From: Methanobacteriota archaeon
Lineage (GTDB): Archaea; Thermoplasmatota; Thermoplasmata; SG8-5; JAGLSY01
Length of the DNA: 64,000 nt
Assembly: GCA_020697715.1 (NCBI GenBank)
Contig: JAEHCO010000003.1
Location: 160,001 to 224,000, forward strand
Direction: 5' to 3'
The notes under the pieces were generated by a model. It was not told the origin of the DNA. It saw nothing but the letters and a program-made list of their open reading frames with translations, and did not search any database. Below are positions 11,592 to 16,259 of this stretch, piece after piece; positions within the stretch are counted from its first letter, which is position 1, and each line of letters opens with the position of its first letter. The position numbers and the translations under genes are program-made.

Positions 11592-12182
11592 TTGGACGAG
11601 TTCAGAAAAAAATTCATTGATGGCTATTTGAAAGACGTGATAGACTGTCTGGAGGATTACAGGAAGAACCCGGAGTTCTTCGACGAGCTGGCAACCATAT
11701 TTTTGGATGCCAGGAAGCGAGGTAATACTGTCTATTTCATGGGTAATGGGGGAAGCGCGGCAACAGCCAATCATTTTGTCTGCGACCTCGGAAAGGGTAC
11801 GATCGTGGAAGGATATCCAAGGTTCAAGGTTTTATCATTATCGGACAATATCCCGATGATGCTGGCATGGGGAAATGATGCTTGTTATGAGGATATATTC
11901 GTCGAGCAGTTGAAGAACTTGATGAACCCTGGCGATGTAATCGTCGGAATCAGTGGAAGCGGAAACTCTGGCAATGTTCTCAGAGCCATAGAATGGGCGA
12001 ATGAGAATGGCGGAATAACCGTCGGCCTCACAGGTTTTGCAGGTGGCAAACTGAAAGACATGGCCAAGCACGTGCTGGTCGTTCCAATCCACTACATGCA
12101 GAAGATCGAGGACATCCACATGCTGGTCGACCATCTTGTGACCTCGCTCATCAGGGAAGAGGAGATGTCCAACCTTGAATAA
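11592..12182 (+). CDS. gmhA: Phosphoheptose isomerase (SIS domain)
   Basis: GNGGSAA, ND..Y..IF..Q, GISGSGNS.NV, GLTGF.GG.L, IEDIH. Confidence 0.85.
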   Translation: MDEFRKKFIDGYLKDVIDCLEDYRKNPEFFDELATIFLDARKRGNTVYFMGNGGSAATANHFVCDLGKGTIVEGYPRFKVLSLSDNIPMMLAWGNDACYEDIFVEQLKNLMNPGDVIVGISGSGNSGNVLRAIEWANENGGITVGLTGFAGGKLKDMAKHVLVVPIHYMQKIEDIHMLVDHLVTSLIREEEMSNLE

Positions 12183-12675
12183 GGCCGTTTTTTTAGATCG
12201 TGATGGAGTAATCAATCGCCTGAATCTGGGCAAGTACGTGACCAAGTGGGAGCAGTTCGAGTTCCTTGAAGGCGTGCTGGACGCGATCAAGGATCTGGCA
12301 GCTGCCGATCTTAAAATAATTGTTATTACGAATCAATCCGCTATCAACCGAGGATTCATGACCGACTACGAACTGGAAGTGATACATGAGCATATGGTGG
12401 ATGCTATCCAGGAAGCTGGTGGACGTATAGACTCTATCTACCACTGTCCGCATGCGCCTCATGAGGAATGCACCTGCCGGAAGCCGGAGCCTGGGATGTT
12501 CGAGAAGGCGATAGGGGACCATGATGTTGATGTGACCCGATCATGGTTCGTCGGAGACTTCCAGAGCGATGAAGAGGCAGCCGCGAGAGTTGGCCTGAAA
12601 TTCAAGCTGGCCGAGGGCGATGGTGGGTTGAGAAGGGCGGTGGATGAGATCTTGAGGGAAAGTCAATCCCCATAA
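12175..12675 (+). CDS. gmhB: Heptose-1,7-bisphosphate phosphatase (HAD)
   Basis: FLDRDGVIN, TNQS, CPH...CTCRKP.PGM, VGD. Confidence 0.9.
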   Translation: MNKAVFLDRDGVINRLNLGKYVTKWEQFEFLEGVLDAIKDLAAADLKIIVITNQSAINRGFMTDYELEVIHEHMVDAIQEAGGRIDSIYHCPHAPHEECTCRKPEPGMFEKAIGDHDVDVTRSWFVGDFQSDEEAAARVGLKFKLAEGDGGLRRAVDEILRESQSP

Positions 12676-12745
12676 ATGCCCCCTTCATGATTATTTATTG
12701 AATGTACCCACCCACTGGATAGTTATTTTTCTGTGTGACCACGAG

Positions 12746-12753
12746 TTTATATA
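12746..12753 (+). promoter_or_regulatory. Candidate TATA box for the leader-tRNA-gatED transcript
   Basis: TTTATATA about 50 nt upstream of the 12801 hairpin; implies a start near 12775-12780. Confidence 0.45.
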
Positions 12754-12800
12754 TCATAATCATTTTGTGGATTTGACTCAAATAGTCAGTATATCACAAT

Positions 12801-12852
12801 AGCCCCGAAGTGTGAAGACGGAGCCAAGCTCCTTACTTTACACAACAGGGCT
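12801..12852 (+). ncRNA. Long interrupted hairpin with tRNA-Gln-like acceptor stem and CAA apical loop
   Basis: AGCCCCG/CAGGGCT (one mismatch), GTGTGAAG/CTTTACAC, GGAGC-CAA-GCTCC. Confidence 0.55.
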
Positions 12853-12876
12853 TCTGTAAATAAAACAAATCAATAC

Positions 12877-12950
12877 AGCCCCGTTGTGTAACGGTAGCAC
12901 GGGAGGTCTTGCACCTCCAGGCATCAGTTCGATTCTGATCGGGGCAACCA
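12877..12950 (+). tRNA. Non-canonical tRNA-Gln(UUG)-like gene with encoded CCA
   Basis: Full cloverleaf: AGCCCCG/CGGGGCA, D arm GTGT-AACGGTA-GCAC, anticodon arm GGAGG-TCTTGCA-CCTCC, T arm ATCAG-TTCGATT-CTGAT, A73, CCA. Deviations: A1.A72 mismatch, C33, C37. Confidence 0.8.
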
Positions 12951-12975
12951 TACCTATTAGCAAAAAGTGAGAAAA

Positions 12976-14796
12976 ATGATAGACCCCGAGAAAATCGACT
13001 ACAGGAAACTGGGCTTCAAGGCGGGCCTCGAGATACACCATCAGCTCAAGTCCTCCCGGAAGTTATTCTGCCACTGTCCAGCCGAGTTGTCGGCCGACCT
13101 GCAGAAGAACCCGGATTTTACATTCCACAGGCGCTTCAGGGCCGTGATGGGCGAGATGGGGGACTTCGACCCCGGTATGCTGGTCGAAGTTGAAAAGGGC
13201 TATCTGGTCATCTACCATGCGAATGACGCCCATGTGTGCACTTACGAGATGGACGATACTCCTCCATTCTGGCTGGACATGGAATCCGTGGATACTGGTT
13301 ATAAGCTGGCCAGTCTTTTCAATTGCGAGTCGCCAGCCGAGGAAGTTGTCATAAATCGAAAGCAGTACTTGGACGGTTCGATAACCACTGGTTTCCAGCG
13401 TACGATGATAATCGCCAGGGACGGTCATGTGAAGCTTGCCAGTGGCAAGAAGATCACTATCACGAATATCCTTATCGAAGAAGACTCGGCCAGGAAGATC
13501 AAGGCCGAGGATCGCGGTCGAACAGTCTATTACAATCTGGATAGGCTGGGTGTTCCACTTACAGAAATTATAACAGATCACAATGAGATCGACACGCCCG
13601 AGCTTTTAATTGAGGCCATAAAGATGATCGGTATCAATCTCAGATTAACGGGACTGGGTCGTCGCGGTATCGGTGTCGGCAGACAGGATGTGAATATCTC
13701 GATCGATGGTGGTGACAGAGTGGAGTTAAAGGGAGTTCAGGATCTTTCTTTATTGACAAAGTTCTGCGCCCACGAGGTTTGCAGACAGCACGCGCTCATC
13801 GATATTCAATCTAAATTAGCCAGCTTGAATCTGAAGAAGGAAGACTTCGAGCATAATTACATAGATATTACTCATTTATTCAATGATCTGGGTGAGGGAG
13901 AATCAGCCTTCGCGGTCAGGCTGCCCGGTTTTGAGAATATCCTCAAAACCGAAGTCCAGCCAGGCAAGGACTTTGGATATGAGATATTCGAGAAATGCAA
14001 TTTAATTACTGGCATCCTGTACGACGAAATGTTCCATTCGGGCGAGATGAGTCCGGGATCCATTCGCATGATGAACAGGTCGGATGATCTTTTCATCAAT
14101 AAGGGACAGGATGGCGAAATTCGAGCCATCCTGAAACTCGCACCAGGAGATGGATACGTAGCTGCCAGGGGTAGTGAGAAACCAGTTCTCCATACCCTGA
14201 AGAAGACAGTGGAGAGATGCAAGCAGGCCTTTGATGGCGTGCCCCAGGAGACAAGGCGAGTGTTGCCAGATGGTAATAACGAGTTCCTGCGCGTGATCCA
14301 TGGAAAAGGCCGTCTTTACCCGGATACGGACACTCCGCCAGCCCCCTATTCGATGGAGAAATTCCACGCGATAAAGGAAAAGGGCTGGACAAGACCACTT
14401 GACCTTCTCCAGAAATATGAGGAGAAGGGATTGAAATTGCCAATGCTGGAACTTATTATCCGCGATCAGAAGGTTCCATTGTTCCAGAAGTTGGTGGACG
14501 AGGCCAAGGTTCCAGTCTCTCTGGCTATTCGATTGACTGTGGAAATTCCCCGGTGGCTGAGGAGGAAAGGTCATGATTCGGAGATAATCAGCCAATTCAC
14601 AATGATCAGTATTGCTGGCAATGTCATGTCAGGAAAGCTACAGACAAAACACCTGCGCCCGATGATGAAGGAAATATGCATGGCTCCCAAGGAGAACCAG
14701 AGTTCGATAGTGACCAAATGGGTGGATCAGAACAATAAAAAGGATGAAGCGGGCGATGTAAGGGACAAATGGCCAGATGATGCGAGGTGTGTTTGA
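12976..14796 (+). CDS. gatE: Glu-tRNA(Gln) amidotransferase subunit E (divergent)
   Basis: GLEIHHQL..RKLFCHCP, RKQYLDGSITTGFQRT, EEDSAR, LDRLGVPLTEI, RRGIGVGRQDVNISI.GG.RVELKGV, VPQETR, RLYPDTDTPP. Confidence 0.9.
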   Translation: MIDPEKIDYRKLGFKAGLEIHHQLKSSRKLFCHCPAELSADLQKNPDFTFHRRFRAVMGEMGDFDPGMLVEVEKGYLVIYHANDAHVCTYEMDDTPPFWLDMESVDTGYKLASLFNCESPAEEVVINRKQYLDGSITTGFQRTMIIARDGHVKLASGKKITITNILIEEDSARKIKAEDRGRTVYYNLDRLGVPLTEIITDHNEIDTPELLIEAIKMIGINLRLTGLGRRGIGVGRQDVNISIDGGDRVELKGVQDLSLLTKFCAHEVCRQHALIDIQSKLASLNLKKEDFEHNYIDITHLFNDLGEGESAFAVRLPGFENILKTEVQPGKDFGYEIFEKCNLITGILYDEMFHSGEMSPGSIRMMNRSDDLFINKGQDGEIRAILKLAPGDGYVAARGSEKPVLHTLKKTVERCKQAFDGVPQETRRVLPDGNNEFLRVIHGKGRLYPDTDTPPAPYSMEKFHAIKEKGWTRPLDLLQKYEEKGLKLPMLELIIRDQKVPLFQKLVDEAKVPVSLAIRLTVEIPRWLRRKGHDSEIISQFTMISIAGNVMSGKLQTKHLRPMMKEICMAPKENQSSIVTKWVDQNNKKDEAGDVRDKWPDDARCV

Positions 14797-14855
14797 ATGA
14801 AGTCGCCATTGCTCCTCATTCAACTCGAAACCTCCAAAATTATGGAGGTTTCCCA
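14794..14855 (+). promoter_or_regulatory. Two-hairpin intercistronic element sequestering the Shine-Dalgarno sequence, copy 1
   Basis: TGAATGA...TCATTCA stem starting at the gatE stop, then AAACCTCCA-AAATTA-TGGAGGTTT; a second copy lies at 31865-31929. Confidence 0.75.
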
Positions 14856-16259
14856 ATGAGTGAAGAATACCAACCACCAGATGGTTACAGAGGTCCTCTT
14901 CTTGAGCGATTGGTCGAGGCCAAGATACGCACGTGGTCAGTGATCCAGGTGAATAAGACTGACGGATCACATTATGAGGGTGTGCTTCTGCCACGTTCCA
15001 TCCACACTTCTGATGATTATCTTTCCATCAAGGTGGACACTGGCTATAATATTGGCATCCAGCTTCCCGATGATGCCACAATAAAAGAGGTCGGCTACAA
15101 TGCGGGATCGTATCAAATTCCTGAGAAGATAGTGGAGAAGACAGCTGGACTTCCAAATGTCACGCTACTGGGCACAGGAGGAACAGTGGCCAGTCGTCTT
15201 GATTATCGAACTGGAGCCGTACTACCAGCCTTCACCCCATCCGAGCTTTTCTCCGCAGTTCCCGAGCTCATCGACATATGCAATTTAACTCCAAAGACCC
15301 TTTACCAGATACTTTCAGAGAACTTCTGCCCCGAATACTGGATAAAAACAGCTGAGGCAGTGGCCAAGGAGATCGAGGGCGGAGCAGATGGTGTGATAAT
15401 CGGTCATGGCACCGACACAATGAGCTATTCTGGCTCGGCACTTTCATACATGTTCCAGGACCTTCCAGTTCCAGTGGTCATCGTGGGCTCGCAGAGAAGC
15501 AGTGACCGCCCATCCAGTGATGGGCCCATAAACATGATGAACGCCACCACACTGGCCGCCTATGGTGATTTGGCAGAAGTGGTCGTCGTCATGCACGGGA
15601 CGACGAGCGACAATTACGACCTCATCCACAGAGCGACAAGGGTGCGCAAGATGCACAGTGCGCGGAGAGATACATTCCGCACTGTCAGTGATACCCCATT
15701 GGGCCAGATCAAGGATAAGGAGATCAAATACTTCAAGGACGATATCAGACGCCGCAGCCCGAAAGAGGACTTCCATCTGAACACCAAGATGGACGAGCGC
15801 GTGACCATGTTGTATTTCTACCCTGGCATGGAACCGGATGTCATGCACGCGGTCATCGACAAAGGCTATCATGGAATTGTCATGATCGGCACCGGATTGG
15901 GACATGTTGGCAAGCCCATGTATGAGGCTCTGGACAGAGCGCAGGAAGAAGAAATTCCTGTGGTCATTGTCGTCCAGCCAATGTTCGGCTTCTCACATCT
16001 TAGGGTTTACGAAACGGGCCGTGACATGCTTGCCCGTGGAGTGATAGAGGGCAAGAACATGCTTCCCGAGGCAGCACTTCCAAAACTCATGTGGGCGCTT
16101 GGCCAGACACAGGATGTGAAGGAAGTGGAAAAGATCATGCACACCAATCTCGCGGGCGAGATCACACAAAGAGAGCCATACAGTGGATTCCCAATATTCC
16201 AGGGTGGCGTTCCGAACTTCTATGATAATTATCGGAATGTCGATAGGCTGGAGAAGTAA
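14856..16259 (+). CDS. gatD: Glu-tRNA(Gln) amidotransferase subunit D
   Basis: N-terminal KVDTGYNIG domain, GTGGTVASRLDYRTGAV, HGTDTM, GSQRSSDRPSSD, RVRKMHS. Start placed at ATG 14856 after GGAGG. Confidence 0.93.
   Translation: MSEEYQPPDGYRGPLLERLVEAKIRTWSVIQVNKTDGSHYEGVLLPRSIHTSDDYLSIKVDTGYNIGIQLPDDATIKEVGYNAGSYQIPEKIVEKTAGLPNVTLLGTGGTVASRLDYRTGAVLPAFTPSELFSAVPELIDICNLTPKTLYQILSENFCPEYWIKTAEAVAKEIEGGADGVIIGHGTDTMSYSGSALSYMFQDLPVPVVIVGSQRSSDRPSSDGPINMMNATTLAAYGDLAEVVVVMHGTTSDNYDLIHRATRVRKMHSARRDTFRTVSDTPLGQIKDKEIKYFKDDIRRRSPKEDFHLNTKMDERVTMLYFYPGMEPDVMHAVIDKGYHGIVMIGTGLGHVGKPMYEALDRAQEEEIPVVIVVQPMFGFSHLRVYETGRDMLARGVIEGKNMLPEAALPKLMWALGQTQDVKEVEKIMHTNLAGEITQREPYSGFPIFQGGVPNFYDNYRNVDRLEK

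Follow-up and report, generated by a model that had tools for sequence, protein, structure and literature searches.

tRNA gene leaders that copy and counter-copy the 5′ end of their own tRNA in an order of Thermoplasmata, with a possible role in tRNA maturation

The window, by which we mean the whole stretch of DNA analysed here, comprises 64,000 nucleotides of a 2.12-Mb genome assembly in 34 contigs (G000). Its GatE is nearest to proteins of Thermoplasmata genome bins, one of them named Candidatus Proteinoplasmatales. The sole tRNA gene of the window, as found by ARAGORN, lies in a 300-nt gap between the end of a gene for a HAD-type phosphatase (12675) and the start of gatE (12976). The same gap holds a hairpin that copies the beginning of this tRNA. 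The features of the locus are as follows:

12746..12753, plus strand: predicted TATA box TTTATATA, 47 nt 5′ of the hairpin, putative promoter element
12789..12796, plus strand: second TATA-like word, a repeat of the first box's core to which no use is assigned
12801..12852, plus strand: leader hairpin unit, a three-part fold of 52 nt
12801..12813, plus strand: mimic arm, which copies tRNA positions 1-13 except that U8U9 is replaced by AA
12820..12832, plus strand: inner stem-loop GGAGC-CAA-GCTCC (GGAGC 12820-12824, CAA 12825-12827, GCTCC 12828-12832)
12838..12852, plus strand: antisense arm, reverse-complementary to tRNA positions 1-15 apart from a single mismatch, opposite C6
12853..12876, plus strand: spacer and immediate 5′ leader of the tRNA, 24 nt, A/T-rich
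12877..12950, plus strand: atypical tRNA-Gln(UUG), found by ARAGORN and by the Rfam tRNA model (45.8 bits, E 2e-08), with the cloverleaf drawn
12976..14796, plus strand: gatE (Pfam GatB_N, E 3.7e-41), with relatives in 29 of 41 genomes
14787..16259, plus strand: gatD (Pfam Asparaginase, Asparaginase_C and GatD_N), following gatE

The tRNA combines an A1.A72 mismatch, C33, C37 and an encoded CCA. A preliminary description of the window had already pointed out the mismatch and C33, and both are confirmed. It had also placed a hairpin 24 nt upstream of this odd tRNA, which is borne out by the sequence, by ARAGORN and by the fold. As RNA, positions 12801-12852 reach −24.8 kcal/mol, compared with −10.5 ± 2.4 kcal/mol for 200 dinucleotide shuffles (z = −5.91), and none of the 200 shuffles was as stable; the hairpin thus exceeds chance. 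Folds of the region contain, by inspection, one 1x1 and one 2x2 internal loop, and the hairpin is closed by A12801 and T12852.

Two relations tie the hairpin to the tRNA. The mimic arm reads AGCCCCG-AA-GTGT and the tRNA start (12877-12889) AGCCCCG-TT-GTGT, in agreement with the word AGCCCCG-NN-GTGT that had been described as shared; the distance from copy to tRNA is 76 nt, start to start. This direct repeat (family D1, 21 nt, 76%) extends 8 nt 5′ of both the mimic arm and the tRNA start. The antisense arm forms an inverted pair (I1) with tRNA positions 1-15, over 15 nt at 93% and with 24 nt between the arms. The cap GGAGC-CAA-GCTCC lies where it had been reported.

Several known kinds of element were considered for the hairpin. 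A cmscan of 12400-13300 on both strands against curated RNA families (E ≤10) returned only the tRNA and four chance-level snoRNA or miRNA rows with E >1. The match to the tRNA model (RF00005) covers 12877-12947 only, and ARAGORN reports no tRNA in the window beyond this one, so the hairpin was rejected as a tRNA. By inspection we saw neither the two 3-nt bulges and 4-bp helix of a bulge-helix-bulge intron or a split or permuted tRNA, the tRNA itself being complete, nor the 3-nt bulge with tandem G.A pairs of a K-turn. The same holds for a C/D box small RNA: neither box word lies beside 12838-12852, and a D/C-like word occurs by chance in a single relative (G003). By eye and in the Rfam scan, we saw no element that would pair with the NCCA 3′ end of the tRNA and thereby switch a terminator or a ribosome-binding site. 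Dispersed or mobile palindromes of the REP or MITE kind were rejected since the units are confined to tRNA leaders, as judged by blastn-short in this genome and a word search in a relative of another family (G008). A tRNA fragment left by an integrated element was rejected as well, as the copy lies 76 nt from the tRNA and the plus strand holds no open reading frame of at least 60 amino acids between 12676 and 12966. Loss of RNase P, as a cause of odd leaders, does not apply, because the gene for RNase P RNA is present; it scores 135 bits.

The putative TATA box at 12746-12753 is kept, together with its 5′ flank gaccacga-, in L031 and L032, both gatE leaders with the mimic hairpin. In this genome a similar box is found 23-31 nt before the mature 5′ end at ordinary tRNA genes and at the gene for RNase P RNA. 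Before units elsewhere, a canonical TATA box lies 27-39 nt 5′ of the copy (47 nt at the 12801 unit), so that the distance from TATA box to copy would be roughly that from TATA box to tRNA in genes lacking a hairpin. In archaea, transcription starts about 25 nt downstream of the TATA box, and the transcription start of the gatE-leader unit may be placed from the box at 12746-12753. The second TATA-like word (12789-12796) belongs to a further repeat family (D3), in which 12750-12760 and 12790-12800 are 91% identical. If this word is active, transcripts start past the mimic arm, which counts against reading the unit as a transcribed module. Our promoter scan relied on simple TATA words and is of limited use, many genes having no match.

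A tRNA-Gln gene stands just 5′ of gatE in the window and in five of seven close relatives (L031-L034 and L036; not L035 and L040), with an A1.A72 mismatch in every case. GatDE makes use of an A1-U72 pair. The mimic hairpin occurs at two of the five gatE-linked tRNA-Gln genes of relatives. L031 has the stems as in the window, with a 20-nt insertion that turns the CAA triloop into a 23-nt loop, and L032 has a short form with an exact 12-nt copy and a 6-nt antisense arm. Inspection of L033, L034 and L036 revealed no mimic hairpin.

The window hairpin can also be aligned with the hairpin of tRNA-Gln(CUG), at a mean column identity of 73%, which indicates that the gatE-linked and tRNA-Gln(CUG) leaders are paralogous. 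In the reading we prefer, the copy in the gatE leader came along with its tRNA-Gln gene, and the module is tied neither to glutamine nor to gatDE. Among four aligned homologous hairpins, 86% of the cells are paired, compared with 31-50% when the partners are slid, and four pairs between copy and antisense arm are altered on both sides. The inner stem is kept in all four, with one double change from G-C to A-U, and its loop is not kept. The RNAalifold consensus is the pairing of the antisense arm with the tRNA, again with pairs altered on both sides; between the window and G003, two such pairs have changed on both sides. As to the conservation that the preliminary description had asked for, the hairpin is kept with paired changes, and the CAA loop occurs in one of the four homologues.

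The arrangement recurs within the genome. Besides the gatE-linked gene, the genome has two further tRNA-Gln genes, with canonical UUG and CUG anticodons, and all three are preceded by such a hairpin, each with its own acceptor word (AGCCCCG, AGTCCCG and AGCCTCG). The same layout of copy and antisense arm is found at tRNA-Lys(CUU) and tRNA-Asp, and a looser version at tRNA-Cys. Under a strict rule (a copy and an antisense word of positions 1-7, each with at most one mismatch, 8-95 nt apart and within 300 nt upstream), 5 of 35 tRNA genes were positive (the three Gln genes, Lys and Asp), compared with 18 of 948 mismatched pairs of tRNA and leader (binomial P = 5e-4). The 35 genes are the 38 Infernal hits of the genome minus three that were partial or below the cut-off. 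In all five the antisense arm stops 22-24 nt short of the tRNA, and over the other units of this genome the range is 20-25 nt. The five units themselves, searched against the genome by blastn-short, gave only self-matches and chance words of at most 17 nt, and no similar leader was found at the RNase P RNA gene, the sole other stable RNA gene tested.

The tRNA loci of seven other genomes were put through the same tests, leaving out tRNAs with less than 140 or less than 300 nt of upstream sequence in the locus. As the genomes are related, the following counts by the strict rule are not independent of each other:

G003, same genus: units at 5 of 32 tRNA genes
G001, same genus: units at 6 of 22 tRNA genes
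G002, same genus: units at 3 of 17 tRNA genes
G004, same family but another genus: units at 1 of 14 tRNA genes, null level
G008, same order but another family: units at 8 of 28 tRNA genes, with a high null rate of 12% (75/620)
G020, same order but another family: units at 3 of 23 tRNA genes
G033, another order, complete genome: units at 1 of 28 tRNA genes, null level

A looser test, based on a 12-mer antisense word, found 8 of 34 leaders of G003 with at least 9 of 12 positions complementary, compared with 2.7% of mismatched pairs, and in all eight the word starts at −32 to −36. In G033, none of the 28 leaders reached 9 of 12. The units are found in the genus of the window at tRNAs for Gln, Glu, Asp, Lys, Thr, Cys and Ala, and in other families of the order at those for Gln, Glu, Gly, Met, Cys, Lys and Pro. 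Even within the order the distribution is patchy, as a comparison of tRNA-Gln genes in 22 of its genomes shows units in some genera and none in others.

Arrays of units occur in G008: tRNA-Glu(UUC) and tRNA-Glu(CUC) are each preceded by three tandem units, tRNA-Met by two and tRNA-Gln(UUG) by about five. At tRNA-Met the copy spans 21 nt, with positions 8-9 bulged out. In this genome, the spacers behind the units repeat the leader of the respective tRNA, with a canonical promoter-like box 5′ of the first unit. Types of inner hairpin are common to the Gln and Glu arrays and absent elsewhere in the genome; an inner-hairpin word, searched with up to three mismatches, occurs three times, always in tRNA leader arrays.

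Two comparisons of orthologous genes illustrate how the units come and go. Among 27 tRNA-Glu genes across the class, the 12-mer test detected a proximal antisense arm at three of the four from the order and at none of the 23 from ten other families. At tRNA-Thr(UGU), G003 has a unit and its TATA box ends at −78, while the orthologue in the window's genome has no unit and the same box ends at −28, which shows that a unit may appear or vanish in one step. Two metagenome scans yielded no further homologues. Where GC-rich genomes showed units at a great distance from the tRNA (G111, G088, G071 and one in G033), these were judged to be chance, given the null rates. A wider pattern search returned 119 stretches with a pattern that was too unspecific, and the records listed were unrelated to the lineage and nearly all bacterial. 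Among the genomes sampled, the module appears to be specific to one order within Thermoplasmata.

The units change together with their tRNAs. At tRNA-Gln(UUG) of G002, the tRNA reads AGTCCTG, the copy AGTCCTG and the antisense arm CAGGACT; in the counterpart of the window's genome these are AGTCCCG, GTCCCG and CGGGAC, so that the change at position 6 is present in all three strands. The antisense arm of tRNA-Asp is identical in the two genomes, including the same two mismatches and 7 further nt, and the spacer and inner part differ. Positions 8-9 are mismatched in 14 of the 17 units of the genus, often through a change of U8 to A in the copy arm (hand count from a table of 32 units, which are the 37 units found minus five with a fold weaker than −12 kcal/mol).

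The three strands were further compared at positions 8-13 only, as positions 1-7 had been used by the detection rule. In 24 units proximal to a tRNA, 78 of 133 positions of the antisense arm are complementary to the tRNA and 66 of 133 to the copy; 10 units have an arm that fits the tRNA better than the copy, 3 have one that fits it less well, and 11 show no difference. Copy and tRNA are identical at 103 of 133 positions. This direct repeat is the strongest of the three relations, and plain duplication also accounts for it. Selection on a plus-strand RNA normally favours G.U over A.C, and the stems of the 32 units contain 592 Watson-Crick pairs, 23 G.U and 28 A.C, without an excess of G.U. Among the units, the plus strand gives the more stable fold 19 times and the minus strand 17 times.

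The antisense arm has two possible partners, and the predicted folds use both. That the repeated AGCCCCG would permit strand-swapped folds had been foreseen in the preliminary description, and the minimum-energy fold of 12775-12980 is indeed swapped: the hairpin is lost, the tRNA's 5′ end being taken up by the 3′ arm and its 3′ acceptor strand by the 5′ arm. For 12778-12950, the separate folds of leader and tRNA sum to −52.7 kcal/mol and the joint minimum with leader:tRNA pairs is −58.4 kcal/mol; these nearest-neighbour energies ignore tertiary contacts and modifications of the tRNA, and the preference for the swapped fold may fail in the cell. At least eight leader:tRNA pairs are present in the predicted joint folds of 22 out of 24 precursors. 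By eye, the pairing of the copy arm with the 3′ acceptor strand is not kept in G003. Pairing within the leader and pairing between leader and tRNA are predicted to be mutually exclusive and of comparable stability.

We tentatively read the unit as a module of the transcribed pre-tRNA leader, in which the antisense arm competes with tRNA folding and the upstream copy neutralises the antisense arm. This is the explanation we lean towards, at somewhat short of an even chance. The module would comprise a copy of tRNA nucleotides 1 to 12 or 13 (the 5′ strand of the acceptor stem, positions 8-9 and the 5′ strand of the D-stem), usually a variable inner hairpin, and the antisense arm. The spacer that comes next, about 23 nt long, would repeat the leader found immediately before the tRNA itself. 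It would be transcribed from an upstream promoter, here the TATA box at 12746-12753. When the antisense arm pairs with the upstream copy, the hairpin would be closed, the tRNA free to fold and RNase P able to cut at 12876/12877. When it pairs instead with the 5′ end of the tRNA, the cloverleaf would be blocked and the RNase P site buried. In this way the module may set the speed at which the precursor reaches a fold competent for RNase P, or whether it does so at all, and RNase P would then remove the module with the leader. The sequence relations, the recurrence at many tRNA genes, the conservation with matching changes and the predicted bistability are what the analysis shows; transcription of the module, strand exchange in the cell and an effect on RNase P are inferred.

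A serious rival, as the lack of a G.U excess makes clear, is that the units are relics of events at the DNA level. They could stem from a duplication combined with an inverted copy, similar to a template switch, at the promoter-proximal end of tRNA genes, with no role for RNA structure; we consider this unlikely on balance, yet a real contender. The units would then expand by unequal recombination of direct repeats, and their similarity to the tRNA would be kept by conversion or by the needs of the promoter. Both the missing bias of G.U over A.C and the missing strand preference are what such relics would give, and the direct repeat covers 8-22 nt of leader besides the tRNA start. The clean presence in G003 and absence in the window's genome at tRNA-Thr(UGU) looks like a single insertion event, tandem arrays and a rearranged order of units between close relatives fit the same picture, and the promoter-like word in the spacers of G008 hints that promoter modules may be what was duplicated. 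However, units in front of the orthologous tRNA-Glu(UUC) gene are found in several families of the order whose GatE proteins are only about 38-40% identical, a distance at which neutral stretches of 50 nt should be lost. Mismatches are conserved and not erased, as in the antisense arm of tRNA-Asp, and they cluster at positions 8-9, while the inner hairpins vary in sequence and always pair. Arms of 12-15 nt are, moreover, short for recombinational homogenisation.

The resemblance to an acceptor stem could also have another use: RNase P, perhaps with tRNase Z, might excise each unit as a hairpin RNA, a pseudo-substrate that would then work as decoy, competitor or small RNA. In its outer 7 bp each unit is identical to the cognate acceptor stem, and it is preceded by a spacer that repeats the leader of the tRNA. 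On the 5′ side positions 8-9 lack a partner, as in bulged hairpin model substrates described in one report (PMC12439589), and another reports cleavage of model hairpin substrates by archaeal RNase P (PMC3035440). Against this, the first base pair is often lost (it is paired in 22 of 32 units), the units have neither a T-loop-like cap at 12 bp nor a CCA-like 3′ tail, and the better fit of the antisense arm to the tRNA than to the copy is left unexplained. We regard a minihelix of this kind as improbable.

Far less probable still is the reading favoured in the preliminary description, namely a glutamine-specific sensor (a T-box-like switch or a kissing loop that displays the codon CAA) or a decoy for GatDE that controls the tRNA or gatED. 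It draws on this one copy, with its CAA loop, its A-U closing pair and its position in the gatE leader. The closing pair exists (A12801-T12852) and occurs in only one of the four aligned homologues; the loop, with its complementarity of 3-4 nt to the anticodon, exists as well, is kept in no homologue and is treated as chance. Display of a Gln codon does not hold up where the loop has 23 nt (G003, the closest orthologue), reads TAAA or TTAA (the tRNA-Gln(CUG) paralogues) or has no inner hairpin to carry it (G001), and a loop of 3 nt is in any case a poor kissing partner. As for the T-box, the Rfam scan of 12400-13300 matches only the tRNA, there is no covariance-model match to RF00230, and the CAA specifier loop, in one of four homologues, is not conserved. 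Control of gatED is contradicted by the same module at non-Gln tRNAs that have no linkage to gatDE (Lys and Asp in this genome; Glu, Thr, Ala, Cys, Gly, Met and Pro in relatives), and a link to gatE by its absence at three of the five other gatE-linked tRNA-Gln genes. Finally, a chance structure in an intergenic region has only the general frequency of hairpins in its favour and is practically negligible in view of the stability relative to shuffled sequences and of a recurrence that follows rules of position and sequence.

Archaeal tRNA 5′ leaders are usually viewed as short, unstructured and simply removed by RNase P. In the lineage studied here, up to a quarter or more of the surveyed tRNA genes have self-copying leaders, which match the first 13 nucleotides, are sometimes repeated and follow the changes of the tRNA. 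A full-text literature search found no description of tRNA leaders that copy and counter-copy the tRNA 5′ end, and this family of leader modules at tRNA genes is apparently previously undescribed. If the module acts as RNA, tRNA maturation would be gated gene by gene via strand exchange; if it exists as DNA only, the units would bear witness to an unusual kind of mutation that recurs at the promoter-proximal end of tRNA genes. In both cases, the reading as a codon display or an archaeal T-box is corrected, and the leader of the atypical gatE-linked tRNA-Gln becomes an ordinary tRNA-gene leader for its lineage. The most far-reaching interpretation, which we put forward as doubtful, is that of a natural RNA device in this order of Thermoplasmata: with a decoy copy and an antisense arm it would make the precursor bistable and control folding and RNase P maturation gene by gene, with arrays at some genes. 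Engineered RNase P riboswitches would then have a first counterpart in nature, and a new control layer of archaeal tRNA supply would come to light.

Parts of this architecture are familiar from other systems. Bacterial leaders of the attenuator type form mutually exclusive hairpins, 1:2 or 2:3, and control the termination or translation of mRNAs. The module likewise has three segments of which the middle one pairs with either neighbour, but it has no terminator, and its third segment belongs to the tRNA itself, being the 5′ end. T-boxes, which are found in bacteria and respond to a tRNA in trans, share with the module a leader RNA whose logic involves tRNA, whereas the module is complementary in cis to the tRNA downstream and shows neither an Rfam match nor a conserved specifier codon. 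Archaeal split-tRNA genes have complementary flanks and archaeal introns form bulge-helix-bulge motifs, so that archaeal tRNA loci with added sequence able to pair elsewhere in the precursor are known. In our case, however, the downstream tRNA is complete, the folds contain no 3-4-3 bulge-helix-bulge, and the two regions that could serve as junctions share their sense and lack complementarity to each other.

Partial tRNA gene fragments can be left behind by integrating elements or by CRISPR activity, as one study reports (PMC9897764), and they resemble the units in being a partial copy close to an intact gene. Such fragments flank kilobase-sized elements, whereas the copies described here lie 50-100 nt upstream, are joined to an inverted copy and recur at orthologous genes across families, with no element between. 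Hairpin model substrates of acceptor and T-arm, with a bulge between the two domains, are cleaved by protein-only RNase P according to PMC12439589. Like the units, they have an acceptor-like stem of 7 bp, followed by nucleotides left without a partner on the 5′ strand and then another helix; they are laboratory constructs with a T-loop, whereas in the natural units the inner hairpins vary and a T-loop is absent.

There is also a likeness to synthetic RNase P riboswitches in tRNA 5′ leaders, which are designed and ligand-controlled (PMC7897497, PMC8925977). Both they and the proposed module have a structured 5′ leader in which two alternative pairings expose or sequester what RNase P needs. In the synthetic switches, it is the single-stranded leader that is sequestered. 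The module, in contrast, is natural, carries a built-in decoy copy as the proposed competitor, has no recognised aptamer and uses for sequestration an arm antisense to positions 1-15 of the tRNA body.

Leader units, which consist of a copy of the tRNA start (copy arm), often an inner hairpin, and an antisense arm, differ in number even between congeneric species. A 26-nt unit followed by a 20-nt spacer precedes tRNA-Thr(UGU) in G003 (L047), which belongs to the same genus as the window genome, G000, and is absent from the G000 orthologue (G000:C32:24071-24144). Both genes retain the same TATA box, whose end lies at -78 in G003 but at -28 in the G000 orthologue. One unit has been cleanly gained or lost at this gene.

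Units can also be multiplied. In G008, a member of the same order but of another family, arrays of 2 to ~5 tandem units of ~77 nt are found before tRNA-Glu, tRNA-Gln and tRNA-Met (L235, L236, L173 and L227). All array spacers, including the one adjacent to the tRNA, carry a promoter-like (BRE/TATA-like) word, which lies a mere 2-13 nt from position +1, nearer than the usual spacing rule allows for a promoter serving the tRNA. Repetition was seen in G000 as well, where the first 12 nt of tRNA-Lys(CUU) are present in three upstream copies (L156, G000:C11:391600-391840), two of them within a 49-nt tandem repeat formed by antisense arm, spacer and copy.

At tRNA-Gln(UUG), a stem-loop of ~40 nt, whose arms are a second antisense/copy pair, lies within the leader hairpin in G000 (L154/L159), but in G003 (L049/L160) it precedes the copy arm. 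The units have changed order between these close relatives. Before tRNA-Gln(CUG) of G000 (L155, G000:C32), antisense arm, spacer and tRNA start together make a perfect 19-bp palindrome; its spacer part stays paired in G003, where both sides have changed.

In the window itself, a second TATA-like word at 12789-12796 repeats the core of the predicted box at 12746-12753. If it were used, transcripts would start downstream of the copy arm, and the antisense arm would be left unopposed. The two genes upstream of the leader (11592-12675) code for a SIS-domain protein and a phosphatase of the HAD type, by appearance a sugar-phosphate isomerase/phosphatase pair with no relation to the leader hairpin.

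The gatE-linked tRNA-Gln (12877-12950) has an A1.A72 mismatch in all six genomes having the gene; in three of these its anticodon loop also has C33 and C37. Between G000 and G003 it is identical at 63 of 70 positions, whereas 19 of 27 tRNA pairs are identical at 70 of 70. The gatE-linked tRNA-Gln is therefore evolving faster than ordinary tRNAs, and it may not serve in decoding as a normal tRNA does.
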